From assembly GCA_030610785.1 (NCBI GenBank), contig JAUWRB010000001.1:1-40694 (forward strand): a stretch of 40,694 bases of DNA. Direction: 5' to 3'. The notes below the pieces were generated by a model. It made no database searches. It saw nothing but the letters and a program-made list of their open reading frames with translations, and had not been told where the DNA came from. This document shows positions 2,064 to 32,521 of the stretch, one piece after another (within the stretch, counting starts at the first letter, position 1; the number at the start of each line of letters is the position of its first letter). The translations under genes were made by a program, and so were the position numbers. The stretch is from Promethearchaeota archaeon. GTDB taxonomy: Archaea; Asgardarchaeota; Lokiarchaeia; Sigyniarchaeales; SOKP01.

Positions 2064-2165
2064 TGGACCTGACGGGATTTGAACCCGTGGCCTCTTGATT
2101 GCGAACCAAGCGAAACATGCTGGCCAGAATTTGAATCCAACAATCTGCGACTAATCTACAGGCCC
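2064..2165 (-). tRNA. tRNA-Ala (anticodon CGC), 102 nt, with about 29 extra nt between the acceptor/D 5' side and the anticodon stem (non-canonical intron or introns); no encoded CCA
   Basis: The reverse complement reads GGGCCTG-TAGATTAGTCGCAGATTGTTGGATTCAAATTCTGGCCAGCATGTTTCG-CTTGG-TTCGCAA-TCAAG-AGGCC-ACGGG-TTCAAAT-CCCGT-CAGGTCC-A. It has a 7-bp acceptor stem including the G3:U70 alanine identity pair. The anticodon arm has loop TTCGCAA (CGC). The T arm has a GTTCAAATC loop. The D region is 48 nt instead of about 19. Confidence 0.6.
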
Positions 2166-17797: not shown

Positions 17798-20700
17798 GTG
17801 CCAAAAGTGACAACCAACGATGAGGGAAAGATTAAGCAAGGCACAATAGCTCAATTCATGCGTAAAAGAACACAATTAGTGGGCTTTGAATTTGGACATT
17901 GGAAACACACGCAATATTGTGCAGAGTTTTTAGACAATGCCCTTGATGCGATAGAATCTTTCCAATGGATGGAATTAAATAAAAAAGATTCTAAAATAAT
18001 GTTCTCCTTGGATCAAGATCTATTTTTAGGCAGTTTAACAATTCTAAAAAATGAAAAACAACTTGAAAAATCTCTACCATTAAGTAATGAAGGAAAACGT
18101 ACATTAATGCTTGAATTAGGTATAGAACAATTCGAATTAAAAGAATCTGAAACCCATTTAATTGAAGAAAAGGAAGAAAAATCTCAAAAAGTAGTTGATA
18201 AAAAACATGAGGAAGTTGAAGAGGAAGTAAAAAAAATAATCAATGATCTGGAAGAACTTATCAAGCCTGTAGAATATATCATTGATCTTGAACCAATTGC
18301 TATTATTAGATTAAGTGAATCTGAAGCAGCATCGTTTTTAACATCAGAATTAAGTCAAAAAAATATCATGAATTATGCTTTTGAAATTTTTGATAACGGC
18401 ACGGGGATGTTGAAAGTAGATTTTAAAAAGTTTGGAAAGTATCTTGCTTCCAGTAAAAGCATTGAATTAAAACAAACAAGAGGTAGTCAAGGATTTGGCG
18501 CGCCGAGTGCTTTCAGTGATGCACAAAACACAACTGGAAGGCCTATTATAGCAATTTCAAAATCAGCAGAAAATATTTACGCTACAGTTTCAGAATTTTT
18601 TACAACATCAAAAAATGAAAAAAAATATATCGTTTACCCTACCGATGTCGATTGCCCATTTCTCCATGGAACTTATATTAAATTAAATTATTTAAATGTA
18701 AAATATATCCGGGGGTATGTGGACAAATTTATAGAAGAAACAGCCTATATGAATCCGCACATTACGCTTATCTATATAGATCCTAACGGTGAGGAAACTA
18801 TTTACAAAAGATTAGTTTCTTCGTTTCCAAAAGAACCCAAATTTGCTAAACCACATCCTTCATCAATAAATATAGGCGATCTACAAGATTTATTAGCAAA
18901 ATCCGAAATTAACTCTCTTTCTTCGTTTTTAAAAGAAAATTTTGTAAGAATTAGTTCAAAAATTGCTCAAAAAATTATTGACCTTGCGTCAAAAGATTTA
19001 CAAGATAATTTAAATTTCTTAATTCTTAAAAACGGCTTTATAAATAAAATATCAAAAAAAAGCGATCTTATTTATTTACTTTGCTATGAAAAAAGAATTT
19101 TTGGAAAGTCCAAAAAACCCAGAGACAAATTAATAATTTATAAAGTTGACTCAGAAGATTTGAAAAATAAATATTGGGAATTAATCTTAAATTATAATCA
19201 ATTTAAAGAAAATCACAAAAAAATTAACAATGATATAAAAAAATTTAATTACCGTGTGGAAAAATCTAAAACTTTAAAGGAAATTAAATTTATTGAAAAA
19301 GAAATAAAAAATCTATTAATAAAAATCGATGAAATTAGAAAAGAAAAAGAAATAATAAAAATTAAATTAGAAAAAGTTTTTGAAAATGTTAATGAAGGTT
19401 TAATTGAATTAAAAAAAATTAAAAAAAGAACTGATTTTGAAGATTTAGTTAACGAGGTTGAAATTTCTAAAGCTAAACCAATAGATTTAACGAAAAATCA
19501 ATATAACTCGCTTTTCCTAGCATTTAAATCGATAAAATATATGACTCCTCCTACAGATACAGCTATTCCCGTAGGTGATACTGTATTAGAAAATACGTTA
19601 ATAAAAGAAATAGGATTAAAAATCTCAGAAAATATTGAAGATTTCGCAGCACCCGTGGATGATATTTATAAAATAATTGATATTATACGCGATGAAAAGA
19701 AAAATGCTATAATACGCGAAGATCCAACTGTTAATGATTTAATTTTAAACAAAATCTCAGTAAGTTCTGAAGAAATCATCGATTTAAATTCTAAAATTTT
19801 AACTAATATCGATCTCATGGATAAAAATGTTAATATAAACGAATTTAAACAATCTGTAGAAAAAATTCTTACATTTTCAGAAGAAGAACTTAAAGATAAT
19901 TATAATGATGTGTTTGAATTTTTTTTAATAAATTATACTAAAGACGATGATTTTGTATCAGCTGAAACGAGACCTCCAACGAGCGGTAAAGGTTTAGCCT
20001 ATGTTGTAGAAGCCGTCTTAGCATATTCAAAAAATCTCGGAACCCCTAAACGCGCTCGGGATGTATTAAGCAGATTTGTTAATAGAACCCCAAAATTAAG
20101 AGATACTGCTGACTGCGCAATTACAAAGGCAGTTCAGTCGGTTAATTGGAAGAATTATAAGTTAGAAACTTATGATAATAATTTACCAAAAGGCCCTATA
20201 AAACTTCTGGTAAATGTTTCTGGACCGTTTGTCCATTTAATGTTTAAATCACAATCTAAAAGTGCTTTAGCTGATGATGAAAATTTAATAAAAGAAATAA
20301 AATTTTGTCTTGAAGCAATTGGAAGAAAGTTGAGAATCTTTCTTAATAGAAAAGCAAATATGTATAAAAGCGAAAAGAGAGCAAGTTTAATTGAAAAACA
20401 CATTCCACAATTTATCAAAAGCGTGTATAACATAGCTTCAAGAGGTGAAAGCATATATAAAGCACGTGTTAACGAAAAAGAATTAATAGATTTAATGAAA
20501 AAAGCTATAGGACAAAAGCCTCCTTCGTTTATTAAAAGAGAAATATCACAGGAACCACCTGAAATTGCATCTCCTAAACCAATAGAAATAAAGGAGGAAT
20601 ATGTTAAGAAAGAAGATCTCCAAAAAAAAGAATTTGCCGTTAAAAAAGAGAAAATAATACCAAAGAAAGAACCAGTTGTTAAGAAACCTGAACCCGATAA

Positions 20701-21220
20701 AGAATTCATTTCAGTTAAAACGCTCAATAATTATACCGTAAAAGAGCTAAAAGAATATTGTAACGAGAAAAAAATAAAAATACATTCAAAAATAACTAAA
20801 GTAAATGTTATAAAGAAAATTTCAGAATCATTCGAGAAAAAGTCAAAATTAGAAATCGTGAAAGAACCGATAAGACCTTTGCCAGTCACATCAAGGGCCA
20901 TTTCAGTAAAGAAACAACAATTAAAAATAGCAAAAATAAAAGCTCCGGCATCAACTAAGCCAAAACCCTCTCCGAAACCTCGTGTTACTCCTCCAAAACC
21001 AAAAACAACTCAAACTCAATTACCTATAATTACAACAGAAAGAATTTTAGAAGTATTATCAAAAGAAGAATGGCAAGCAATTACTCACCTCATTTTTAAA
21101 TTAAAAATTAAAGATATGATGGATGCTAGGTTTTTACAAATTAAATTAAAAGAATTATTAAGGAAAGGATTAGTTTTAGAAAATACAATTAAAACTAAAA
21201 AACACTGGAAATTAAAATAA
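17798..21220 (+). CDS. top6B: DNA topoisomerase VI subunit B, unusually long (1140 aa) with insertions and a C-terminal extension
   Basis: GTG start. N-terminal strap IAQFMRKRTQLVGF. Bergerat-fold N box EFLDNALDA (E43/N47/D50). G1 box FDNGTGM (D199). G2-like TRGSQGFGAPSA. YMNPHITLIYIDPNGE. H2TH segment KPHPSSINIGDLQDLL. PPTDTAIPVGD. Transducer motifs ETRPPTSGKGLAYVVEAVLAY, SRFVNRTPKLRD, NWKNYKL and KSQSKSA. Confidence 0.85.
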   Translation: MPKVTTNDEGKIKQGTIAQFMRKRTQLVGFEFGHWKHTQYCAEFLDNALDAIESFQWMELNKKDSKIMFSLDQDLFLGSLTILKNEKQLEKSLPLSNEGKRTLMLELGIEQFELKESETHLIEEKEEKSQKVVDKKHEEVEEEVKKIINDLEELIKPVEYIIDLEPIAIIRLSESEAASFLTSELSQKNIMNYAFEIFDNGTGMLKVDFKKFGKYLASSKSIELKQTRGSQGFGAPSAFSDAQNTTGRPIIAISKSAENIYATVSEFFTTSKNEKKYIVYPTDVDCPFLHGTYIKLNYLNVKYIRGYVDKFIEETAYMNPHITLIYIDPNGEETIYKRLVSSFPKEPKFAKPHPSSINIGDLQDLLAKSEINSLSSFLKENFVRISSKIAQKIIDLASKDLQDNLNFLILKNGFINKISKKSDLIYLLCYEKRIFGKSKKPRDKLIIYKVDSEDLKNKYWELILNYNQFKENHKKINNDIKKFNYRVEKSKTLKEIKFIEKEIKNLLIKIDEIRKEKEIIKIKLEKVFENVNEGLIELKKIKKRTDFEDLVNEVEISKAKPIDLTKNQYNSLFLAFKSIKYMTPPTDTAIPVGDTVLENTLIKEIGLKISENIEDFAAPVDDIYKIIDIIRDEKKNAIIREDPTVNDLILNKISVSSEEIIDLNSKILTNIDLMDKNVNINEFKQSVEKILTFSEEELKDNYNDVFEFFLINYTKDDDFVSAETRPPTSGKGLAYVVEAVLAYSKNLGTPKRARDVLSRFVNRTPKLRDTADCAITKAVQSVNWKNYKLETYDNNLPKGPIKLLVNVSGPFVHLMFKSQSKSALADDENLIKEIKFCLEAIGRKLRIFLNRKANMYKSEKRASLIEKHIPQFIKSVYNIASRGESIYKARVNEKELIDLMKKAIGQKPPSFIKREISQEPPEIASPKPIEIKEEYVKKEDLQKKEFAVKKEKIIPKKEPVVKKPEPDKEFISVKTLNNYTVKELKEYCNEKKIKIHSKITKVNVIKKISESFEKKSKLEIVKEPIRPLPVTSRAISVKKQQLKIAKIKAPASTKPKPSPKPRVTPPKPKTTQTQLPIITTERILEVLSKEEWQAITHLIFKLKIKDMMDARFLQIKLKELLRKGLVLENTIKTKKHWKLK

Positions 21221-21236
21221 ACGAAATGAAGAAAAT

Positions 21237-22427
21237 ATGAGTCAAAAAAAACCTCCCAGTTTAAATTATGATTTAAAAGCGACAAAAAAACTATTTAATG
21301 AATATTTAGAAAAAGGACGCGATAAAACTGAAATTAAACTCCCCCCAGATACCGTCAAGATTGATGATCTTGATAGAAATAAAACCTTAGCAAGACTTTA
21401 TAAACTTGTTGATGATGTTATCGAAAAAATTTATAATACAGGAAGACCATCAATAAAATTACCCTCTAGAGCGACTTCTAATATTAAATGGGATGAGGAA
21501 AATGATTTATTACTTCTTGGTAATCAACTCCAAGAGAAACAGTTTCATACTCTTACTAGCGTTACAGATGTTACGAGATTGATGCGAGTGTTAGAAATAG
21601 TTGATGAATTGCTAGTTAAAGATATTCATGCTACTAAACGTGAAATTTTTTATAGTGATGTAAATTTATTCGTAGAACAAAAAAATAGCGATAAAAGCAT
21701 TGAAGATGTAGCAACAATGTTATATGCCACGCGTAACTCAACTCATATAGTTGCTGCTCCAAAAGGAACTTGTGTAGGGCGCCTTAGAATTAGAGATAAA
21801 AACGATATAATTGACCTTGAAGGATTAGGAAGTGGTGGTTGGACAATTTCTCCCATGTTAGACAATATCGAAATAATAGAATCCGATGCAGAATTTATTT
21901 TAGTAATAGAAAAGGATGCTGCCCTAATGCGCTTAGCAGAAGCAAGATTTTGGCGTAAATATCCGTGTATCTTAATTACCGCACAAGGCGTTGGAAATGT
22001 TGCCGTGCGCATGTTTTTAAAACGATTAAGCAGGGAATTAAACTTGCCTATTTTCAGCCTGGTCGACAGCGACCCGTACGGGCACTATATTCACTCCGTT
22101 TATCTACGTGGGTCGAAGAGATTGAGTTACGAGTCACCTTTCCTCGCCACACCAAATATTAAACTACTTGGAGTCTTAACAAAAGATTTAGACGCATATA
22201 AAATTCCGAATGAAGTTAGGATCCCAATGAATAAACAAGACAAGAAACGTGTAAAAGACATGTTAAATGAAGATTTCGTAAAAAAAAACAAAAAATGGGA
22301 AGAAGATCTAAAATTAGCTCTTAAATTAGAAATTAAAGCCGAAATTCAAGCATTTTCAGCACATGGTTTTGAATTCCTTACAGAAAAATACCTACCTGAA
22401 AAATTAACAACGGGGGACTGGATTTGA
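21237..22427 (+). CDS. top6A: DNA topoisomerase VI subunit A (Spo11 homolog)
   Basis: 396 aa. Winged-helix/5Y-CAP region with KREIFYSD (catalytic Tyr context). Toprim motifs LVIEKDA (Glu) and VDSDPYGHYI (DxD). 16 nt downstream of top6B. Confidence 0.9.
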   Translation: MSQKKPPSLNYDLKATKKLFNEYLEKGRDKTEIKLPPDTVKIDDLDRNKTLARLYKLVDDVIEKIYNTGRPSIKLPSRATSNIKWDEENDLLLLGNQLQEKQFHTLTSVTDVTRLMRVLEIVDELLVKDIHATKREIFYSDVNLFVEQKNSDKSIEDVATMLYATRNSTHIVAAPKGTCVGRLRIRDKNDIIDLEGLGSGGWTISPMLDNIEIIESDAEFILVIEKDAALMRLAEARFWRKYPCILITAQGVGNVAVRMFLKRLSRELNLPIFSLVDSDPYGHYIHSVYLRGSKRLSYESPFLATPNIKLLGVLTKDLDAYKIPNEVRIPMNKQDKKRVKDMLNEDFVKKNKKWEEDLKLALKLEIKAEIQAFSAHGFEFLTEKYLPEKLTTGDWI

Positions 22428-24390: not shown

Positions 24391-27300
24391 GTGAAGATTT
24401 TGATCTTAGATGTTTTATTTATAATTATCTTTCTAGCGTTTTTTCTATTTGGTTTTTTTATTATTTATAAGCAAGTAGCTTTAGTCAAAAAGGGGGAATT
24501 TAACGTTAGTGATCGACTTCAATGTATTATTTACGGAATTATATTTAGTATAGCGCTAATGGTTGTTATAGCCATGGCTTTCATATTTGCTGTACAAACC
24601 CCGGAATTCTGGGAAAATAGTTCATTCCCCCCTCCAGATATAAACCCTCTTGCTCTAATAATTCCTTTTATAATATGCTTGGCTTACATATCTTTTTATC
24701 CTTTAATTGATTTTTTATTCATTGCTGTAAGTGAAGAATCAGATGAAGGACTCACCCCATTTCATAAATTAATAGGAAATAAAGTCATTAATATCTCAAA
24801 AAGTAAATATGGTTCAGTAATCATGGCCATACTGTTATATTGTTTATTTATTATACCTCCTGTTTTACTATCACTCTTAGGATTTTCATTCTTAATGATA
24901 TTTATCTCCTGGATGCTCGTTTATCCAATGATGATATTAACTTTTTATGGTTCTAAAGGTTATATTGCAGGAATTTCAAATTGCTATTATAACATCCCGG
25001 ATATAAGGAGATCAATTTTTCTTAATTTTGAAGATAGTAAAAGGGGAATGAAACAGTTTGCTTCAAATCCCGCATCTTATATCGTTTTCGGTTTAATGAT
25101 ATTTGTTTTTATATGGGCTTGGATTTCTATGATTCAAACCATCACTTTTTTTTTCACAGGAAAAATCGCGATTTCAACTATGACATCGGTATTTGTTTTT
25201 GTAACGCTTTTTTTTGGAATTATGGGATATTTCACCCGATTTTGGGGGAGAAAAATAAAGTATCGCGGGATAGATATTTATTTTGCCGCTTATTTAATGG
25301 CCGCTATTGGTATTAATGTCTTAGTGAATTTTTTAATCGTTAATCCCAATAAATTATTTGATACTTTTAATATGTGGGATTTTACAGACCAAATCATTCC
25401 AAATTATAGAATGTTTGCTTGGGCCGCAGTTATTGAGGAAATTATTTTAATTATCTTCACATCTTATTTCTTTCTAGCAAAAAAAAACAAATTTATAAGA
25501 AATATTAAGTATTCCCGAATAACTGAATGTGGAAATATCTTTAATCCAATTCCCCTATTCAACTTTATAAAAAATAAAAATCTTATTATCAGAAAACACG
25601 CCGAAGAAACACTAATTTTAATGTTTGAAAGAATTCCTCTAAAAGCTAAAATTGATTTAAACAAATTAAAATTTAAATATTTTTTATTTGATGCTTTATG
25701 TGATTATCACTCTAACGCAAGAAGAATTAGCTATAACATTCTCCTTCAATTAGAAAAGGATGTCCCCGATATTGTATTACCGTGGATAATTGAAGGTATA
25801 ACATCTCCTAACTACGATAAAAGCATTCCTATTGCTAGATCTTTATTAAAATCTGAGATAAGCCTTTTAGAAAATATCCCTGAAAATGCAATATTTTCTC
25901 TTATTGAAGACCCAGAATGGAGATTAAAACAATATGGATTAATGATTTTGTCCCGTCTCGTACATAAAAAAAACGATTTAATTTTAAATTTAAATATTCA
26001 TGAATTAGTTAATGACTCTAATAGCAAAGTACAAGTGGAAATTTTAAATTTACTTTCAGAATCTTCAATAGAACTTCCTGTACATGTTATTATTAAAAAA
26101 ATAAATCATTCAAATAAGGAGATTAGAGCTGCTGCAATTAAGAATGTAAAAAACATTAAAATTGAAAATATTGATTCTCAAATAATCAATATACTCTTAC
26201 CATTAATGAAAGACCCTACTAGTTCTGTTAGAGCTTCAATTTTTGAAGTTTTTGCTAAAATAGGAAATTTTAAGAAATTTTCTATCCCCATTTCACCTTT
26301 CTTAGATGGTTTAACTGATTATAACGAAAATGTAAGATCTTTTTCGGTTTTAGCACTTGAGAAATACTCTGATGAGGAACCAGGCAGTATAAATCTTGAT
26401 GTGATTATAAATAAAATTGACCCTAATAATAATGAAGTATTAAGTAGCGTATTGTCCCTGCTTGGTAGATTATGGGAAAAAAATCCTGAAAAAATCATAA
26501 CGATTTTCTTAATATTCATTAAGTTTGATAATGAAAAATTAAAAAAAAATATCTCAAAAATTCTTGTTGAAAAATATCAATCTCACCCAGACTTAATAAT
26601 TCAAAACTTAATTAACATTTCTGATGTCTCTAAATTCATTTCAAAAGGAATTATTTCAACGACAATTATAAAAATTGCTAAAGCAGACCCACAGAATATG
26701 ATTCCTAAATTAATTATATATTTAAATTCAAATAACGAAGATATCGTATTAAACGCAATTTCTTCTTTAGATGGATTAATAGACGAATTTTTTGAGATGA
26801 TTAGCATTAAACCGCTACTTTCATTGATGCAAAAAGATATGAATAATCAAATAAAAAAAGAAGCTTCAAAGCTCATTTCAAAAATAGCTAAAACAAATCC
26901 TTTCTCTATTAAACCTTTTATTCCATTAATTTTTCAAATTGTAAACGACCAAGAACAATCCGTTAAAATTGTGTTATCTAAATCAATATTAGAAATAGCT
27001 AAAACTTCTCCAGAGCTCATCCCTGTTAGGTCCATTATCCCGTTTTTTTCAGATCAAGATTCTTTTATTCGTGAATCTGGTGCAAAAATTCTAGGCTTTA
27101 TTGGATTTGAATTAGTTGACGAAGTTATTGATGTATTAATAAATAAAGGACTAACTGACGAAGAATGGATAGTAAGAGAAGCTTCAGTAGCTAGTTTAGG
27201 AAAGATTGTTGAACATGTGGAGAATAAGGAATTTATAATAAAAAAACTCGTCTATTTATTGGATGATGACCAAAATTGGGTTCGAAGATCAGCCATGAAT

Positions 27301-27747
27301 ATTTTATCTAATATTAAAGAAGTGACTGCTTCACAAATACCTTTTGAGAAAGTTGCAAGTAATTTGACAAGTTCTGATCCTAAAGTTAGAGAAGGATCAG
27401 TTGGATTGCTAAAAATTTATAGCTTTATTAACATCGATAGAGTTTTTGACGATATCCTAACTCTTTTAGGCGATGATTCTGAAGTTGTTAGAAAAAAAAT
27501 GATTAATACCACTGTTGAAATAATTAATAAAATTGGTTTATCTAAGATTTTATCTAAACTTTTAAAAAATTTAAGCGATGAAGGTTCTTTAGAAACACAA
27601 CAATCAATTGCCCTAATCCTAAGAAGAACTGCGAAATATGAAGATAAAAAAATCAAGAAAAGAATAATTTCTTTGCTCAAGATAAGATGTGAGATGAGTC
27701 AAGACCCGATCATATGTCAAACTCTGCAAGAATTGAGAGAGAGTTAA
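24391..27747 (+). CDS. Polytopic membrane domain (~370 aa) fused to a long HEAT/ARM-repeat region (~750 aa)
   Basis: GTG start. The N-terminal third contains many hydrophobic 20-25 aa stretches (for example ILILDVLFIIIFLAFFLFGFFIIY, IIYGIIFSIALMVVIAMAFIFAV). The remainder contains at least 10 repeats with the HEAT signature Dxxxx[VI]R...A...L (DPEWRLKQYGLMILSRL, NKEIRAAAIKNV, DPTSSVRASIFEVFAKIG, NENVRSFSVLALEKY, DSFIRESGAKILGFIG, EEWIVREASVASLGKI, DQNWVRRSAMNILSNI, DPKVREGSVGLLKIY, DSEVVRKKMINT). Confidence 0.7.
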   Translation: MKILILDVLFIIIFLAFFLFGFFIIYKQVALVKKGEFNVSDRLQCIIYGIIFSIALMVVIAMAFIFAVQTPEFWENSSFPPPDINPLALIIPFIICLAYISFYPLIDFLFIAVSEESDEGLTPFHKLIGNKVINISKSKYGSVIMAILLYCLFIIPPVLLSLLGFSFLMIFISWMLVYPMMILTFYGSKGYIAGISNCYYNIPDIRRSIFLNFEDSKRGMKQFASNPASYIVFGLMIFVFIWAWISMIQTITFFFTGKIAISTMTSVFVFVTLFFGIMGYFTRFWGRKIKYRGIDIYFAAYLMAAIGINVLVNFLIVNPNKLFDTFNMWDFTDQIIPNYRMFAWAAVIEEIILIIFTSYFFLAKKNKFIRNIKYSRITECGNIFNPIPLFNFIKNKNLIIRKHAEETLILMFERIPLKAKIDLNKLKFKYFLFDALCDYHSNARRISYNILLQLEKDVPDIVLPWIIEGITSPNYDKSIPIARSLLKSEISLLENIPENAIFSLIEDPEWRLKQYGLMILSRLVHKKNDLILNLNIHELVNDSNSKVQVEILNLLSESSIELPVHVIIKKINHSNKEIRAAAIKNVKNIKIENIDSQIINILLPLMKDPTSSVRASIFEVFAKIGNFKKFSIPISPFLDGLTDYNENVRSFSVLALEKYSDEEPGSINLDVIINKIDPNNNEVLSSVLSLLGRLWEKNPEKIITIFLIFIKFDNEKLKKNISKILVEKYQSHPDLIIQNLINISDVSKFISKGIISTTIIKIAKADPQNMIPKLIIYLNSNNEDIVLNAISSLDGLIDEFFEMISIKPLLSLMQKDMNNQIKKEASKLISKIAKTNPFSIKPFIPLIFQIVNDQEQSVKIVLSKSILEIAKTSPELIPVRSIIPFFSDQDSFIRESGAKILGFIGFELVDEVIDVLINKGLTDEEWIVREASVASLGKIVEHVENKEFIIKKLVYLLDDDQNWVRRSAMNILSNIKEVTASQIPFEKVASNLTSSDPKVREGSVGLLKIYSFINIDRVFDDILTLLGDDSEVVRKKMINTTVEIINKIGLSKILSKLLKNLSDEGSLETQQSIALILRRTAKYEDKKIKKRIISLLKIRCEMSQDPIICQTLQELRES

Positions 27748-27934: not shown

Positions 27935-30256
27935 TTGCCAATTAGTAAAGTGCAGAAGTTCGAAGATTTTTATAGAATGTTTCAAGAAAAACCTGGTGTT
28001 TATAAGTATCAAAATCAAATTAATGATATTTTTTCAAAAGGCGATAACGCGCTTTTAATTTTTTACGAGGATTTATTAACTTTTGATTTTCAATTAGCTG
28101 ATATGCTAAAAAATGACCCTGTTTCTCTTTTAGAGGATGCTATTGATGCCTTTAAAAACATATTAAAATTTCAAAGTGGAAAATTAAATATTCAAGATTA
28201 TTTTGTTAGAATAACGACCAAAGACGACCAAAGTCCTTTATCAATTCCTTTAAGGAGGCTAAGAGCAAAAAATATAGATAAATTAATTTGGTCTAAAGGC
28301 ATATTAATTAGAAGTTCTACAATTAGACCAAAATTAATGAACGCAACTTTCGAATGCATGGTTTGTGGATCCCAATTTCAAGTGCTTCAGCTTACTTCAA
28401 GAATAAAATGGCCACAATTTTGTGTTAATAACCGATGCAAAGCTAAAACACAATCTGATTTTAGGCTTATTTCAAAAAATTCAGAATTCATTGACTGGCA
28501 AAGCATAGTGATTCAAGAAATTCCTGAAGATCTACCAGCTGGAAGAATTCCGAGATCAATTCAAGCGATATTAACTTATGATTTAGTTGATACTGTAAAA
28601 CCAGGAGATAGAATAAAGATTATGGGGATCTTTAAGTCTGTTTTAGCCCAATCAACTAAAAGTATTAATTCTAATATATTTAGGACTTTTGTAGATGTCA
28701 CTTTTATTGATCCTGAAGATAAAAGCGAAGGAGACATGGATCTTTCTAAGGAAGAAATAAAAAAAATAGAAGAAAAGTCGAAGGAACCATTTATACAAAA
28801 AAAAATTGCTCGGTCAATTGCCCCTACCATTTACGGAAGGGACGATCTAAAAATGGCATGCGCTTTAAGTTTATTTAGCGGAACAAGGAGAAAAAAACCG
28901 GGAGGAAATTATAAACGAGGTGATATCCACATTTTATTTGTAGGAGATCCTGGGACGGGTAAGTCAGAAATCCTGAAAAGTACAATAGATGTGTCTCCAA
29001 GAGGCTTATATACTTCAGGAAAAGGTGCGTCTGCAGTTGGTTTAACTGCGGCCGTTATTAAAGATACTGAAACGGGTCAAATGAATCTCGAAGCCGGAGC
29101 AATTGTTCTAGCTAACGGAGGCATTGCTGCTATTGATGAATTTGATAAAATGGATACCGCAGATAGATCTGCATTGCACGAAGCAATGGAACAACAATCT
29201 TATCATTATAATACGGAAATTTTAACAACAAATGGCGAAAGAATCGTTATTGGTAAGTTCATTGATGACTTTATCGCTACTAATAAATCTAAAGTCATTC
29301 AAGGAAAGAATTGTGAAATTTTGCCATTTAATAATCTAGAAATTTATTCAACAAATTTCAATAAAATTTACAAGACAAAAATAAATAGAATTAGCCGTCA
29401 TGAAGCGCCAAGTTGTTTTTATAAATTAACATTTACTAATGGTAGATCAATTAATATCACGCCTGAACATCCTATTTTTGTTTTTAATAAAGGGAAATTA
29501 AGATGTAAGAATGCTGAAAAATGTTCAATCAATGAATTTATTCCCGTCCCTAAATACCTTCCTAATTCAAGTAAAATAATAAAACTAAGAAAAAACGAAA
29601 ATATTCAACACATTTTATTTAAAGAAGTCGTATTTCCAGAAGATTTAACACCAAAATTAAGCAGAATACTTGGTTATTTTATAACAAATAAACTAAGTAA
29701 TGAAGGTTCTGGACCTGAATTTTATTATTCTAATAAGGATAATCTTGTTGTAGAAGAATTTAATCGTCTAATATTTGAATTATTTAATATATCTCCTTCT
29801 AAAAAAGAAAGAAACGATGGTTTGATAAGATTAAATTATATTTCTATAGAGTTATGTAATTGGATGAAAACGAATTTTCCTGAGATAATGATAATTTCAA
29901 AAAGTAAAAGAATTCCTTCGAAAGTACTTGGTTGTGACGTTGAAAATGCTAGAGAATTTTTAATTAGTGCTTTTAAAAGTGATGGTTATATAAACTCTAC
30001 TTCGGCATGTATTAAAGCGGCATCAAAGGGTCTTAGCAATGATTATCAAGATTTGTTATTAAAACTAGGAATTCATTCTTATATTGTATTGGATAAAAGA
30101 AATGATTTGTATAAGGTTTATATTCGTGGTCAATCAATAATTAAATTTTGCGATGAAATATTTGAAAAAAATGATCATGGAAACGAAGAAATTAATAATC
30201 TAATAAATTTGAATCTAAAAAAACACATCGTCCTGAAATTTTACCTACTTCTTTAA
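27935..30256 (+). CDS. mcm: MCM replicative helicase, N-terminal extein (27935-29197) plus the N-terminal part of the intein, ending at a frame break
   Basis: TTG start (uncertain). C4 zinc motif CMVCGSQF...CVNNRC. Walker A GDPGTGKSE. Walker B AAIDEFDKM. ALHEAMEQQ is followed directly by intein block A (SYHYNTEILTTNGE) instead of the canonical TVSIAKAG. Confidence 0.85.
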   Translation: MPISKVQKFEDFYRMFQEKPGVYKYQNQINDIFSKGDNALLIFYEDLLTFDFQLADMLKNDPVSLLEDAIDAFKNILKFQSGKLNIQDYFVRITTKDDQSPLSIPLRRLRAKNIDKLIWSKGILIRSSTIRPKLMNATFECMVCGSQFQVLQLTSRIKWPQFCVNNRCKAKTQSDFRLISKNSEFIDWQSIVIQEIPEDLPAGRIPRSIQAILTYDLVDTVKPGDRIKIMGIFKSVLAQSTKSINSNIFRTFVDVTFIDPEDKSEGDMDLSKEEIKKIEEKSKEPFIQKKIARSIAPTIYGRDDLKMACALSLFSGTRRKKPGGNYKRGDIHILFVGDPGTGKSEILKSTIDVSPRGLYTSGKGASAVGLTAAVIKDTETGQMNLEAGAIVLANGGIAAIDEFDKMDTADRSALHEAMEQQSYHYNTEILTTNGERIVIGKFIDDFIATNKSKVIQGKNCEILPFNNLEIYSTNFNKIYKTKINRISRHEAPSCFYKLTFTNGRSINITPEHPIFVFNKGKLRCKNAEKCSINEFIPVPKYLPNSSKIIKLRKNENIQHILFKEVVFPEDLTPKLSRILGYFITNKLSNEGSGPEFYYSNKDNLVVEEFNRLIFELFNISPSKKERNDGLIRLNYISIELCNWMKTNFPEIMIISKSKRIPSKVLGCDVENAREFLISAFKSDGYINSTSACIKAASKGLSNDYQDLLLKLGIHSYIVLDKRNDLYKVYIRGQSIIKFCDEIFEKNDHGNEEINNLINLNLKKHIVLKFYLLL

Positions 30257-30768
30257 TTGAAACTATAATTAAAATCAAAAAAGATTTAGACATCCCTTAC
30301 AATGGATATTTTAACCTCCAATTAAAAAAAAATAATGGTATAACTCGTAATGTTCTCTCGAATGAATTGAATATAATTAAAAAAAAAATAACTTTAATAG
30401 AAAATCAAATTAACAAGATCCTTACTATTTCAGAAATTAGGAAAAAAATAAAATATTCTCAAAAAAAATTAGCTATAATCTCAGGATTCACGAGACGTGA
30501 AATTGATTTTTATGAAAGGGGCTACTATAATAAGAATAAAAGAAATGTTATTAAAACAATATTAATCTCATCTATTAAAAATAAAATTGAAGATATTAGA
30601 AAAAATATCAGATCCGTAGACTATATTAAAGATTCAGATATTTTATGGGATCGAATAATTAGTATTGAAATTATTCAAAATAAAGCAAAGAGTTATACTC
30701 CTTGGGTTTATGATTTAACTGTCGAACCTAATCACACATTTATTGGTCAAGGAGTTGTTTTACATAAT
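29198..30768 (+). mobile_element. Intein (~524 codons) with a LAGLIDADG homing-endonuclease domain, inserted in MCM between EAMEQQ and TVSIAKAG
   Basis: Block A starts with Ser1 (tct at 29198). Block B is NITPEHPIFV (TxxH). LAGLIDADG-like blocks are LSRILGYFITNKLSNEGSG and EFLISAFKSDGYI. Blocks F/G are VYDLTVEPNHTFIGQGVVLHN, followed by Thr+1 (acc at 30769). Removing the intein restores the canonical MCM sequence EAMEQQ|TVSIAKAGI. Confidence 0.8.
30217..30223 (+). other. A7 tract in A_AAA_AAA phase at the MCM/intein frame break: candidate -1 recoding site, or a homopolymer indel
   Basis: The upstream frame reads CTA AAA AAA CAC and stops at 30254-30256. The downstream (MCM C-terminal) frame is open from 30199. 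The two frames overlap only across 30199-30256, and this A7 is the only obvious slippery element there. A -1 shift, or an eighth A, fuses both parts. Confidence 0.35.
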
Positions 30769-31614
30769 ACCGTAAGCATTGCAAAAGCAGGAATTGTTGC
30801 CACATTGAAAGCTCAGACGGCCATAATAGCTGCAGCAAATCCGCATTCTGGCAGATACGATAGATATAAAACAGCTACTCAAAATATTAAATTGCCGCCG
30901 GCCTTATTATCACGTTTTGATTTAATTTTTGTTGTTGTAGATCGACCTGATCCATCTGAAGACGCACAAATGGCAGAATTTATACTACAAAATTCCATGA
31001 AAGGTACTGAAGATGATTCACTAATGCTAGATATGAAAGACGAAGGTATGACCCCTATTTCTAGAGATCTTCTTAAAAAATATATAAGGTATGCCAGAAG
31101 AACTTGTCATCCTATTTTAACCGAAGAGGCTAAAGAAAGAATAAAGGAATTTTATTTAAAATTAAGGGGTCAATATGATAGTGAGGATGCGATCATTTCT
31201 ATTCTAGCGAGGAATTTGGACGCGTTAATTAGATTAAGTGAAGCTCATGCGAAAATGGCTTTAAGAGATAAAGTTACTAAAGAAGATGTTGAAGATATCA
31301 TTATATTATTTAAACGATACCTTAAAGATACCGGTTATGACGATTCTACGGGAAAGATTGATATGGACCGACTTTTCATTGGTGATTCGAGAAGTAATCT
31401 TAACAAGCTTGAAAAATTTTTAACCCGAATAAAAGAAATTTTTGAAGAAAATAATTTTAACGCTCTTGAAAAGATGAATATTGTCCAAATTCTAGATCTT
31501 GAAGAAGATTTCGATAAAAAATACATTGAAAAAGCTTTAAAAGATCTAATTACTGATGGAACCTTATATGAACCGAAATTCGGGCTAATTAAATTCGCTA
31601 GTAAAGATGATTAA
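30367..31614 (+). CDS. mcm: C-terminal part of the intein (to 30768) plus the MCM C-terminal extein (30769-31614). The frame is open upstream to 30199, so the TTG at 30367 is probably not a real start
   Basis: After VVLHN the sequence continues TVSIAKAGIVATLKAQTAIIAAANP (sensor 1), LLSRFDLIF (arginine finger), then LDALIRLSEAHAKMALRDKVT and a C-terminal winged-helix-like tail. These are typical of MCM. Confidence 0.85.
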   Translation: MNIIKKKITLIENQINKILTISEIRKKIKYSQKKLAIISGFTRREIDFYERGYYNKNKRNVIKTILISSIKNKIEDIRKNIRSVDYIKDSDILWDRIISIEIIQNKAKSYTPWVYDLTVEPNHTFIGQGVVLHNTVSIAKAGIVATLKAQTAIIAAANPHSGRYDRYKTATQNIKLPPALLSRFDLIFVVVDRPDPSEDAQMAEFILQNSMKGTEDDSLMLDMKDEGMTPISRDLLKKYIRYARRTCHPILTEEAKERIKEFYLKLRGQYDSEDAIISILARNLDALIRLSEAHAKMALRDKVTKEDVEDIIILFKRYLKDTGYDDSTGKIDMDRLFIGDSRSNLNKLEKFLTRIKEIFEENNFNALEKMNIVQILDLEEDFDKKYIEKALKDLITDGTLYEPKFGLIKFASKDD

Positions 31615-31717: not shown

Positions 31718-32521
31718 TTAAATCCATTCACATTGAGTAATTCCCGCATCTTTTAAAAAGCCTATCTTACTCCAGTGATCTATAAGTCTATTAACGAATT
31801 TCTTAACATTAAAGTCAATTAAATCATGATCTATCTTTAATGTTTTAATACTTCGAATGACTATAATCAAATTCCTTTTCTTCTTCTTTAAATTCCTTTT
31901 AATTAATTCTCTCTCATGATTATATCCTTTTTGAAATTCTTCATCGTAAAAATCTATATATTTGTGTTTTAAATAATCTTTGAATCCCAAATATGTTTTA
32001 TGTAAATTTTCAAAACACCGACCAAAATCAATTCGACATAATGAGTTATCTTCCCGTATAATGAAATGTCGATCATAGACATCATATAAAGATAAGATCT
32101 CGTGTAGATAACATTGTCTTCCTAAAATAAATTTATATTTTGAAATTTTATGTTTCCCTACATTATCTCCTTTTTCAAATGTCGTTATAATGTAAGGAAT
32201 AGCGGTTTTTTTTTTTTTGTATAATCCTGTTAAATAATTTTTGAAACATAATTGAGGGTCAAAAAAAGATCTAGTTAGATGGAGTCCTAATATTTCAAAA
32301 ATGAATTTTTCTCTCACGTATTTTATAAAAAGTAAAGGTTCTCTATTTAGAGAAAAGATAGTCCATTTTTTATAATATGACCAAGTGCATTTTAATAAAA
32401 ATTCTTTTTCTAAAGGAAAATTTAATATTTCAGCACATTTTAATATTTCATTTTCAGAAATTTCAGAAATTGAATGCCAATTGAATATTTTCTTCAAAAT
32501 TTCTATATTTTGAGGATTCAA
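31718..32521 (-). CDS. Small (267 aa) protein with a PI3K/PI4K-like catalytic-core signature (atypical kinase-like)
   Basis: EILSLYDVYDRHFIIREDNSLCRIDFGRCFEN aligns by eye with the PI3K/PI4K segment ILGIGDRHxxNIMvkxxGxLFHIDFGhxl. DRH is at complement of 32066-32074 and IDFG at complement of 32011-32022. Upstream, LLFIKYVREKFIFEILGL resembles the IFKxGDDLRQDxLxLQ lysine/helix region. The Asn of DRHxxN is missing (apparent 3-residue deletion). Confidence 0.45.
   Translation of the reverse strand: MNPQNIEILKKIFNWHSISEISENEILKCAEILNFPLEKEFLLKCTWSYYKKWTIFSLNREPLLFIKYVREKFIFEILGLHLTRSFFDPQLCFKNYLTGLYKKKKTAIPYIITTFEKGDNVGKHKISKYKFILGRQCYLHEILSLYDVYDRHFIIREDNSLCRIDFGRCFENLHKTYLGFKDYLKHKYIDFYDEEFQKGYNHERELIKRNLKKKKRNLIIVIRSIKTLKIDHDLIDFNVKKFVNRLIDHWSKIGFLKDAGITQCEWI

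Follow-up and report, generated by a model that had tools for sequence, protein, structure and literature searches.

A Split mcm Gene in a Promethearchaeota Contig: an Apparent One-Base Homopolymer Discrepancy in an Otherwise Ordinary Gene

The mcm Locus and Its Intein

The DNA analyzed here (the window) is a stretch of 40,694 nucleotides (nt) with a GC content of ~29%, contig JAUWRB010000001.1 of the Promethearchaeota archaeon assembly GCA_030610785.1, and it carries on its forward strand an intein-bearing mcm gene that is split between two open reading frames (ORFs). ORF1 (27935-30256) begins with a TTG start codon, encodes 773 aa and ends at the TAA stop codon at 30254-30256. The downstream frame is closed by a TAA at 30196-30198 and is then open from 30199 to 31614, leaving a 58-nt overlap (30199-30256, + strand) that is bounded by these two stop codons. 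Called on its own, ORF2 starts at a TTG (30367-31614, + strand) and encodes 415 aa, which comprise the C-terminal 134 aa of the intein and the C-extein. Within the overlap lies a run of seven A's (A7; 30217-30223, + strand), flanked by T and C, which in the ORF1 frame reads CTA AAA AAA CAC, that is, as A_AAA_AAA in the X_XXY_YYZ phase of slippery heptamers. Joining the two frames at this run, by adding or re-reading one A, gives a 1226-aa MCM precursor of 421 (N-extein), 524 (intein) and 281 (C-extein) aa, with ...NLNLKKTHRPEILPT... as the predicted junction peptide across the restored frame and ...AMEQQTVSIAKAG... as the predicted span of the spliced MCM at the extein-extein joint. A preliminary description made from the sequence had already named the two ORFs, the 58-nt overlap and the A7 run in the A_AAA_AAA phase, and all of these coordinates hold on re-reading; its 1226-aa precursor (421/524/281) is likewise obtained on joining the frames and is encoded outright by relatives that carry eight A's (A8) at the site.

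The domain identity of the gene is unambiguous, as Pfam matches (MCM_N, MCM_OB, a split MCM P-loop, a split Intein_splicing, LAGLIDADG_3, a weak HTH_3, and MCM_lid) are joined by full-length homologs that are 69-99% identical. The N-extein (27935-29197, + strand; 421 codons) ends in ...HEAMEQQ and contains MCM_N, the OB fold and the part of the AAA+ domain with Walker A and B; it is delimited by Pfam and by the EQQ/SYHY boundary, and its nucleotide identity to the closest related locus (L001, described below) is 99.84%. The intein (29198-30768, + strand) has 524 codons with the missing A restored, runs from SYHY to VVLHN, matches Intein_splicing, LAGLIDADG_3 and HTH_3, and is colinear with 20 intact homologs. 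It is inserted directly after Walker B and before SIAKAG. The C-extein (30769-31614, + strand; 281 codons), assigned by Pfam and by translation of the boundary, supplies Thr+1, the presensor-1 hairpin region SIAKAG, the rest of the AAA+ domain, MCM_lid and a winged-helix tail. At the intein's N-terminal side, the nucleophile Ser1 is found at 29198 right after EQQ, and motif coordinates place block B with TPEH at 29456-29479 (+ strand). On the C-terminal side, blocks F and G (VYDLTVEPNHTF...GVVLHN) occupy 30706-30768 (+ strand), and the boundary GVVLHN/TVSIAKAG at 30751-30771 presents His-Asn followed by Thr+1. Intein_splicing is matched in both halves of the broken gene. Apart from its interruption, this is a standard intein-bearing archaeal MCM gene with an ordinary cis-splicing LAGLIDADG intein.

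The endonuclease part of the intein is less well preserved. LAGLIDADG motif 1, located by alignment columns at 29666-29698 (+ strand), is degenerate (ILGYFITNKLS). In the clade formed by the window and its two close homologs P0001 and P0121, it reads GYFITN(K/E/G)LS, whereas in 17 more distant homologs it is an invariant (S/T)EGHS; the catalytic Glu has thus become Asn in this clade, while motif 2 keeps its Asp (FKSDG). To judge from these motifs, the homing endonuclease of this clade is probably decaying or dead. Between the window and its 99.7% identical relative, 15 of the 23 codons that bear single-nucleotide polymorphisms (SNPs) sit in a cluster at 29690-29939. The intein has diverged by 1.3% and the exteins by 0.16-0.35%, as would fit an endonuclease that is decaying under relaxed constraint.

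The Same Site in Related Genomes

When the repaired (frame-joined) MCM protein was used as the query of a homolog search, a 99% identical and uninterrupted protein (P0001; 1212 aa as called, 1226 aa from the TTG start) was found. It is encoded on ERZ4220937 NODE_211 (ENA, 44 kb; loci L001, L003 and L006) and on a Logan contig of SRR12623522 (L002 and L007), and the gene neighborhood on both contigs is the same as in the window. In the DNA alignment, both loci have A8 where the window has A7, and the relatives read ...NLNLKKTHRYEILPTSLIET...; alignment, a regular-expression search over all loci and blastn find A8 in every related assembly (CTA AAA AAA ACA, for Leu-Lys-Lys-Thr). The junction that had been predicted for the window, NLNLKK-THR...ILPTSLIETII, is exactly what these A8 relatives read. 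The 90% cluster of P0001 has four members. In addition to P0001, these are P0121, an intact 1226-aa protein from the NCBI metagenome-assembled genomes (MAGs) GCA_054386175.1 and GCA_054384595.1 (both Promethearchaeota archaeon); P0122, the JGI copy of a protein identical to P0121; and P0123, the window's own ORF1 product as called (759 aa), which occurs on this contig only. The P0121 lineage has ~95% nucleotide identity to the window and A8 at the same site. Altogether, A8 with an intact protein is found in four independent assemblies from two lineages (~99.7% and ~95% nucleotide identity), and A8 is therefore the ancestral, in-frame state. The product of ORF2 (P0124, 415 aa) is a singleton cluster among ~15 billion proteins. 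Among the GTDB representative genomes, a scan with the intein returned no relative, which indicates that the genus is not among the representatives, and a scan of JGI metagenome contigs for the site with either A7 or A8 gave no match.

The A7/A8 difference is isolated as well as private. The alignment of the window with NODE_211 extends over 29.5 kb (11237-40694), with identity of 99.6-99.8%, and contains a single gap, the A7/A8 one; ~80 homopolymers of at least 7 nt in the compared stretch, including T13 at 32206-32218, are of equal length in both. The SRR12623522 loci likewise fall in this identity range and show no gap other than A7/A8. A frameshift elsewhere in the 58-nt overlap was considered and ruled out, as the alignment puts the single gap in the A-run. 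In the comparison with the 95% lineage, the other gaps are intergenic, at the ends of ORFs, or net-zero pairs within a few bases; the gap in the A-run is the only net frame-changing coding difference, which indicates that real evolution purges frameshifts in this clade. The earlier remark that homopolymers elsewhere in the window are read correctly is borne out by the 29.5 kb free of any other indel and by the agreement at T13, but this leaves room for one isolated miscall or for a private mutation. In summary, the A7/A8 indel is unique, private and isolated, with A8 in all relatives, and the continuous reading frame through extein, intein and extein that A7 breaks in the window is continuous in all of them.

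The wider family tells the same story at the protein level. In all 20 uninterrupted homologs, whose identity to P0121 is 47-92%, colinearity is kept through the junction, where their consensus is ...NLIKPxxxKTHHHDIFPTS..., with Pro771 invariant and His766, His767, Thr772 and Ser773 nearly invariant. The downstream frame of the window (KKTHRPEILPTS) fits this consensus, whereas the out-of-frame tail of ORF1 (HIVLKFYLLL*; 30224-30256, + strand) fits nothing in the family. Lys-Lys is absent from the site in 17 of the 20 more distant homologs, which makes the A-run a local trait of this small clade. Neither the interruption nor the shift site is conserved in the family.

Signs of decay were sought by polarizing the differences between the window and L001 with L010 as the outgroup. 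In the intein, the window has 5 private nonsynonymous and 2 private synonymous changes, and its intact sister likewise has 5 and 2. In the exteins, 2 synonymous and 2 nonsynonymous changes are private to the window, and the latter (P1030L and P1043S) both fall in a C-extein linker that is variable across the family. An old pseudogene is ruled out by the single lesion, by the intact splicing blocks and MCM motifs, and by the lack of asymmetric decay. The preliminary description had argued against such a pseudogene from the intact blocks and motifs, a view with which Pfam, the motif coordinates and the symmetrical 5:2 substitutions agree. With no sign of decay, the lesion is either not real or extremely recent. 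Three C-to-T changes private to the window (31022, 31032 and 31060) lie close together, in a 40-nt piece of the C-extein, two of them nonsynonymous (Pro to Leu and Pro to Ser), and this small cluster may be real or related to damage or assembly.

Artifact, Private Mutation or Recoding

The explanation that accounts best for these observations is that A7 is a homopolymer assembly or consensus error, to which we assign a probability of roughly 70%; that A7 is an artifact rather than a real allele is the step that we infer from the sequence comparisons. The ancestral mcm gene is one continuous frame of 1226 codons, and according to this scenario its A8, situated in the endonuclease/DNA-binding linker, would have been recorded as A7 in this one contig, giving the appearance of two ORFs. 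The likely source of the error would be the consensus of a low-coverage, strain-mixed metagenome population, and in the organism itself one precursor would be translated, from which the intein would splice out to leave a 702-aa MCM. A random homopolymer miscall would be expected to fall in coding DNA ~84% of the time in this window, whereas real frameshifts that become fixed should spare essential genes, as seen in the comparison with the 95% lineage; this favors an artifact. A survey of frame transitions in 1,106 genomes likewise found homology-validated singleton frameshifts to be most likely sequencing errors (PMC3711429).

The coverage of the related assemblies, as given in contig names, is only ~4-11x (NODE_211, cov 11.5; NODE_30669, cov 4.4). 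The Logan contig L005 (SRR14865926_13532) begins at a position equivalent to 30234 of the window, one base past the SNP at 30233, which is the signature of a branch in a k-mer graph, and it carries window-type and L001-type alleles in a mosaic. A search for the SRR14865926 contig upstream of L005 through neighbor-gene look-ups recovered none. Logan contigs also break at the T13 run, where L002 ends and L004 starts (32203-32218 of the window). Public samples therefore contain at least three haplotypes of this organism that are closely related, and its assemblies may be chimeric consensus sequences.

Several points weigh against an artifact. The call was made from assembled sequences; the assembly is otherwise accurate at homopolymers, so that a single error is a priori rare if the data are Illumina; and the window is a distinct haplotype, with ~100 SNPs relative to its nearest relative, two of which (CC, 30232-30233) lie 9-10 nt downstream of the run. 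As a distinct haplotype, it could conceivably carry a genuine strain-specific allele.

This leads to the foremost alternative, which we regard as unlikely but worth serious consideration, namely that A8 was reduced to A7 by a real, private and very recent deletion in a strain or sub-population, in which the mcm allele is either dead or leakily expressed. Both this mutation and the homopolymer error were among the three explanations listed in the preliminary description, and only these two still stand. Real 1-nt indels arise most often through homopolymer slippage, and both the separate haplotype of the window and the coexistence of several haplotypes in related samples are in keeping with a private allele. 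If dead, the allele could persist for a short time, such as in a polyploid cell, or could be a minority variant taken up by the assembler. The replicative helicase MCM is, however, essential, and with a frameshift in the intein all of the C-extein is lost, so that such an allele should not reach consensus frequency; moreover, it would be the sole net frame-changing coding indel seen in the clade.

In the leaky form, by analogy with fucA1 of Sulfolobus solfataricus, the allele could be decoded through unprogrammed -1 ribosomal slippage on A_AAA_AAA before the less-used CAC codon, or through the addition of an A by RNA polymerase, as an "adventitious" compensation. The fucA1 gene of S. solfataricus P2 is also broken at an A-rich heptamer, yet it is decoded at ~5-10%, and its site too is flanked by rare CAC codons (PMC8211752). 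In the window, the heptamer is followed in the 0 frame by CAC, which is the less frequent His codon here (49 CAC vs. 120 CAT). In bacteria, insertions made during transcription gather in A/T runs and become exponentially more frequent as the run lengthens (PMC5574713). Against leaky decoding, a run of seven is short for efficient transcriptional slippage, the cited bacterial cases having at least 9 (PMC5009743), and a study of Buchnera found no transcript error that restored a frame (PMC5574713). The 100 nt downstream of the heptamer hold no stimulatory RNA structure (minimum free energy -7.3 kcal/mol, compared with a mean of -6.8 for shuffled sequences; z = -0.24), no Shine-Dalgarno-like element was found upstream of the A-run, where the sequence is A/T-only, and an Rfam search of the region returned no element. 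Furthermore, 49 in-phase copies of the same heptamer lie in ordinary genes of the window, and efficient slippage at such sites would fill the proteome with shifted products. It is improbable that A7 is genuine and that the only replicative helicase of the cell is made by low-efficiency -1 slippage, ribosomal or transcriptional, followed by protein splicing, or, as a variant, by a trans-splicing rescue.

Still weaker, and in our view highly improbable, is the proposal that this lineage controls its MCM expression by programmed (selected and regulatory) -1 ribosomal frameshifting or by programmed transcriptional realignment. There is archaeal precedent for programmed -1 frameshifting (PMC8211752), and the heptamer at 30217-30223 does stand in the canonical 0-frame phase within the overlap. 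This observation discriminates poorly, as the window has 73 A-runs and 37 T-runs of at least 7 nt, and its ORFs (34,140 nt) contain 49 in-phase A_AAA_AAA heptamers and 249 in-phase X_XXY_YYZ heptamers of any kind, or one per ~137 nt. The phase itself is the automatic result of removing one A from an ancestral CTA AAA AAA ACA. The break was originally described as falling exactly at a slippery heptamer; its location stands, but the coincidence is no more than would be expected where heptamers are so common. Conservation of position across homologs, which serves as a working criterion for recoding (PMC3711429), is lacking here, as the 99.7% and 95% relatives are uninterrupted, most of the more distant homologs lack Lys-Lys at this position, and the split products are singletons. 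Nor is there at the junction a conserved long A/T run (typically at least 9; PMC5009743) of the kind associated with programmed transcriptional realignment, since the run is A7 here and A8 in relatives. Unconserved even at 99.7% identity, placed at a ubiquitous heptamer, and accompanied by neither structure nor Shine-Dalgarno-like element, the programmed frameshifting or slippage that was initially put forward is not supported.

The endonuclease/linker region of an intein is where natural and engineered split inteins are divided. The break in the window falls in this region, between blocks B and F, both halves keep their splicing blocks, and an in-frame TTG (30367) precedes blocks F/G, but the prospect that the intein has spontaneously split and that ORF1 (N-extein, N-intein and endonuclease) and ORF2 (C-intein and C-extein) trans-splice to MCM is very slim, given that no start other than this TTG is available upstream of the splice junction, that it lies 111 nt past the ORF1 stop with no Shine-Dalgarno-like or promoter-like context in a C-intein segment that is entirely free of Met, that the arrangement is unique to this contig (ORF2 being a singleton) while the relatives have cis-inteins, and that a sequence otherwise essentially identical to the intact allele leaves no time for adaptation.

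Neighborhood, Implications and Known Systems

Upstream of mcm, the window encodes topoisomerase VI subunits B (~1137-1140 aa, unusually long) and A at 17798-22427, and a HEAT-repeat protein of 1118 aa (24391-27747) directly precedes mcm. This topoisomerase VI/HEAT-repeat/mcm gene order is conserved in related contigs. In the 40 nt upstream of ORF starts, most genes have no recognizable Shine-Dalgarno sequence and many are only A/T-rich, which suggests that initiation in this organism is leaderless or independent of Shine-Dalgarno sequences; many ORFs in the program-made list start with TTG or GTG. Elsewhere, a full-length Rfam tRNA match (model 1-71, 47.5 bits) at 2064-2165 (- strand) is spread over 102 nt, but no tRNA is predicted by ARAGORN anywhere in the window; the match probably marks an archaeal tRNA gene with an intron.

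Taken together, the sequence comparisons show the split mcm to be an ordinary gene but for a one-base homopolymer discrepancy that is a singleton. For annotation, the two ORFs are best joined into one mcm gene, marked either as having a suspected frameshift or as a pseudogene on the basis of sequence only, and an intact MCM should not be counted as missing from this MAG. More generally, at ~29% GC an in-phase A_AAA_AAA is too common to be informative about recoding by itself. If programmed frameshifting were nevertheless true, it would be only the second cellular archaeal case of -1 recoding, and it would concern the replicative helicase of a eukaryote-related archaeon. If instead a leaky A7 were true, leaky decoding would sustain an essential gene in an archaeon that grows extremely slowly, a situation that resembles fucA1 but involves a core replication protein.

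With respect to its intein, the gene finds ready counterparts. MCM is the archaeal protein that most often carries inteins, and the insertion sites are clustered in its ATPase core (PMC4760082; PMC10643990). The archaeal MCM inteins (CDC21/MCM; sites MCM-a to -e in the AAA+ domain) are likewise of the LAGLIDADG type, are inserted in the ATPase core, and share Ser1, TxxH, His-Asn and Thr+1; nothing essential differs here, except that this clade has lost the first LAGLIDADG catalytic Glu. In the database, the same intein is present at the same site in dozens of MCMs from Promethearchaeota/Hodarchaeota, some with a second intein (~1,760 aa). Six such homologs (P0006, P0009, P0011, P0016, P0017 and P0019) are ~1,755-1,780 aa long, and this length suggests a second intein in the same gene.

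With respect to its interruption, the closest archaeal parallel is fucA1 of S. solfataricus, in which a -1 shift occurs at A-AAA-AAT. Both consist of two ORFs, the downstream one in the -1 frame, with a short overlap and an A-rich X_XXY_YYZ heptamer followed by CAC, and in both the gene is full-length in close relatives (other Sulfolobales in the case of fucA1) that differ in the length of the A-stretch (PMC8211752). For fucA1, however, the full-length product has been proven in vivo and in vitro, there is a putative downstream stem-loop, the interruption is present in two strains, and the enzyme is dispensable (PMC8211752), whereas the split mcm is an essential gene, known from sequence, that is found on a single contig and has no such structure. 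A second parallel is provided by the poly(A) frameshifts of Buchnera and Blochmannia that are rescued by polymerase infidelity, which likewise affect A-runs of essential genes in AT-rich genomes (PMC5009743). Those rescued tracts are longer, with 9-10 or more A's (PMC5009743), whereas the tract here is A7 and the host is not a bottlenecked endosymbiont, and a later transcriptome-wide study of Buchnera detected no frame-restoring events (PMC5574713). Natural split inteins and "fractured genes" also yield a host protein in two pieces, each with half an intein and with the break in the endonuclease region. The known examples are independent, properly initiated genes that are conserved across taxa, unlike the present pair, which has no credible second start and is confined to one contig. 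Finally, the "singleton fs-genes" of GeneTack are likewise known from one sequence only, with both halves matching intact homologs and with the frame transition at a homopolymer (PMC3711429). They have been classed as most likely sequencing errors and otherwise as fresh indels (PMC3711429). No difference was found between them and the split mcm, and the singleton frameshift is thus the category that fits this gene best.

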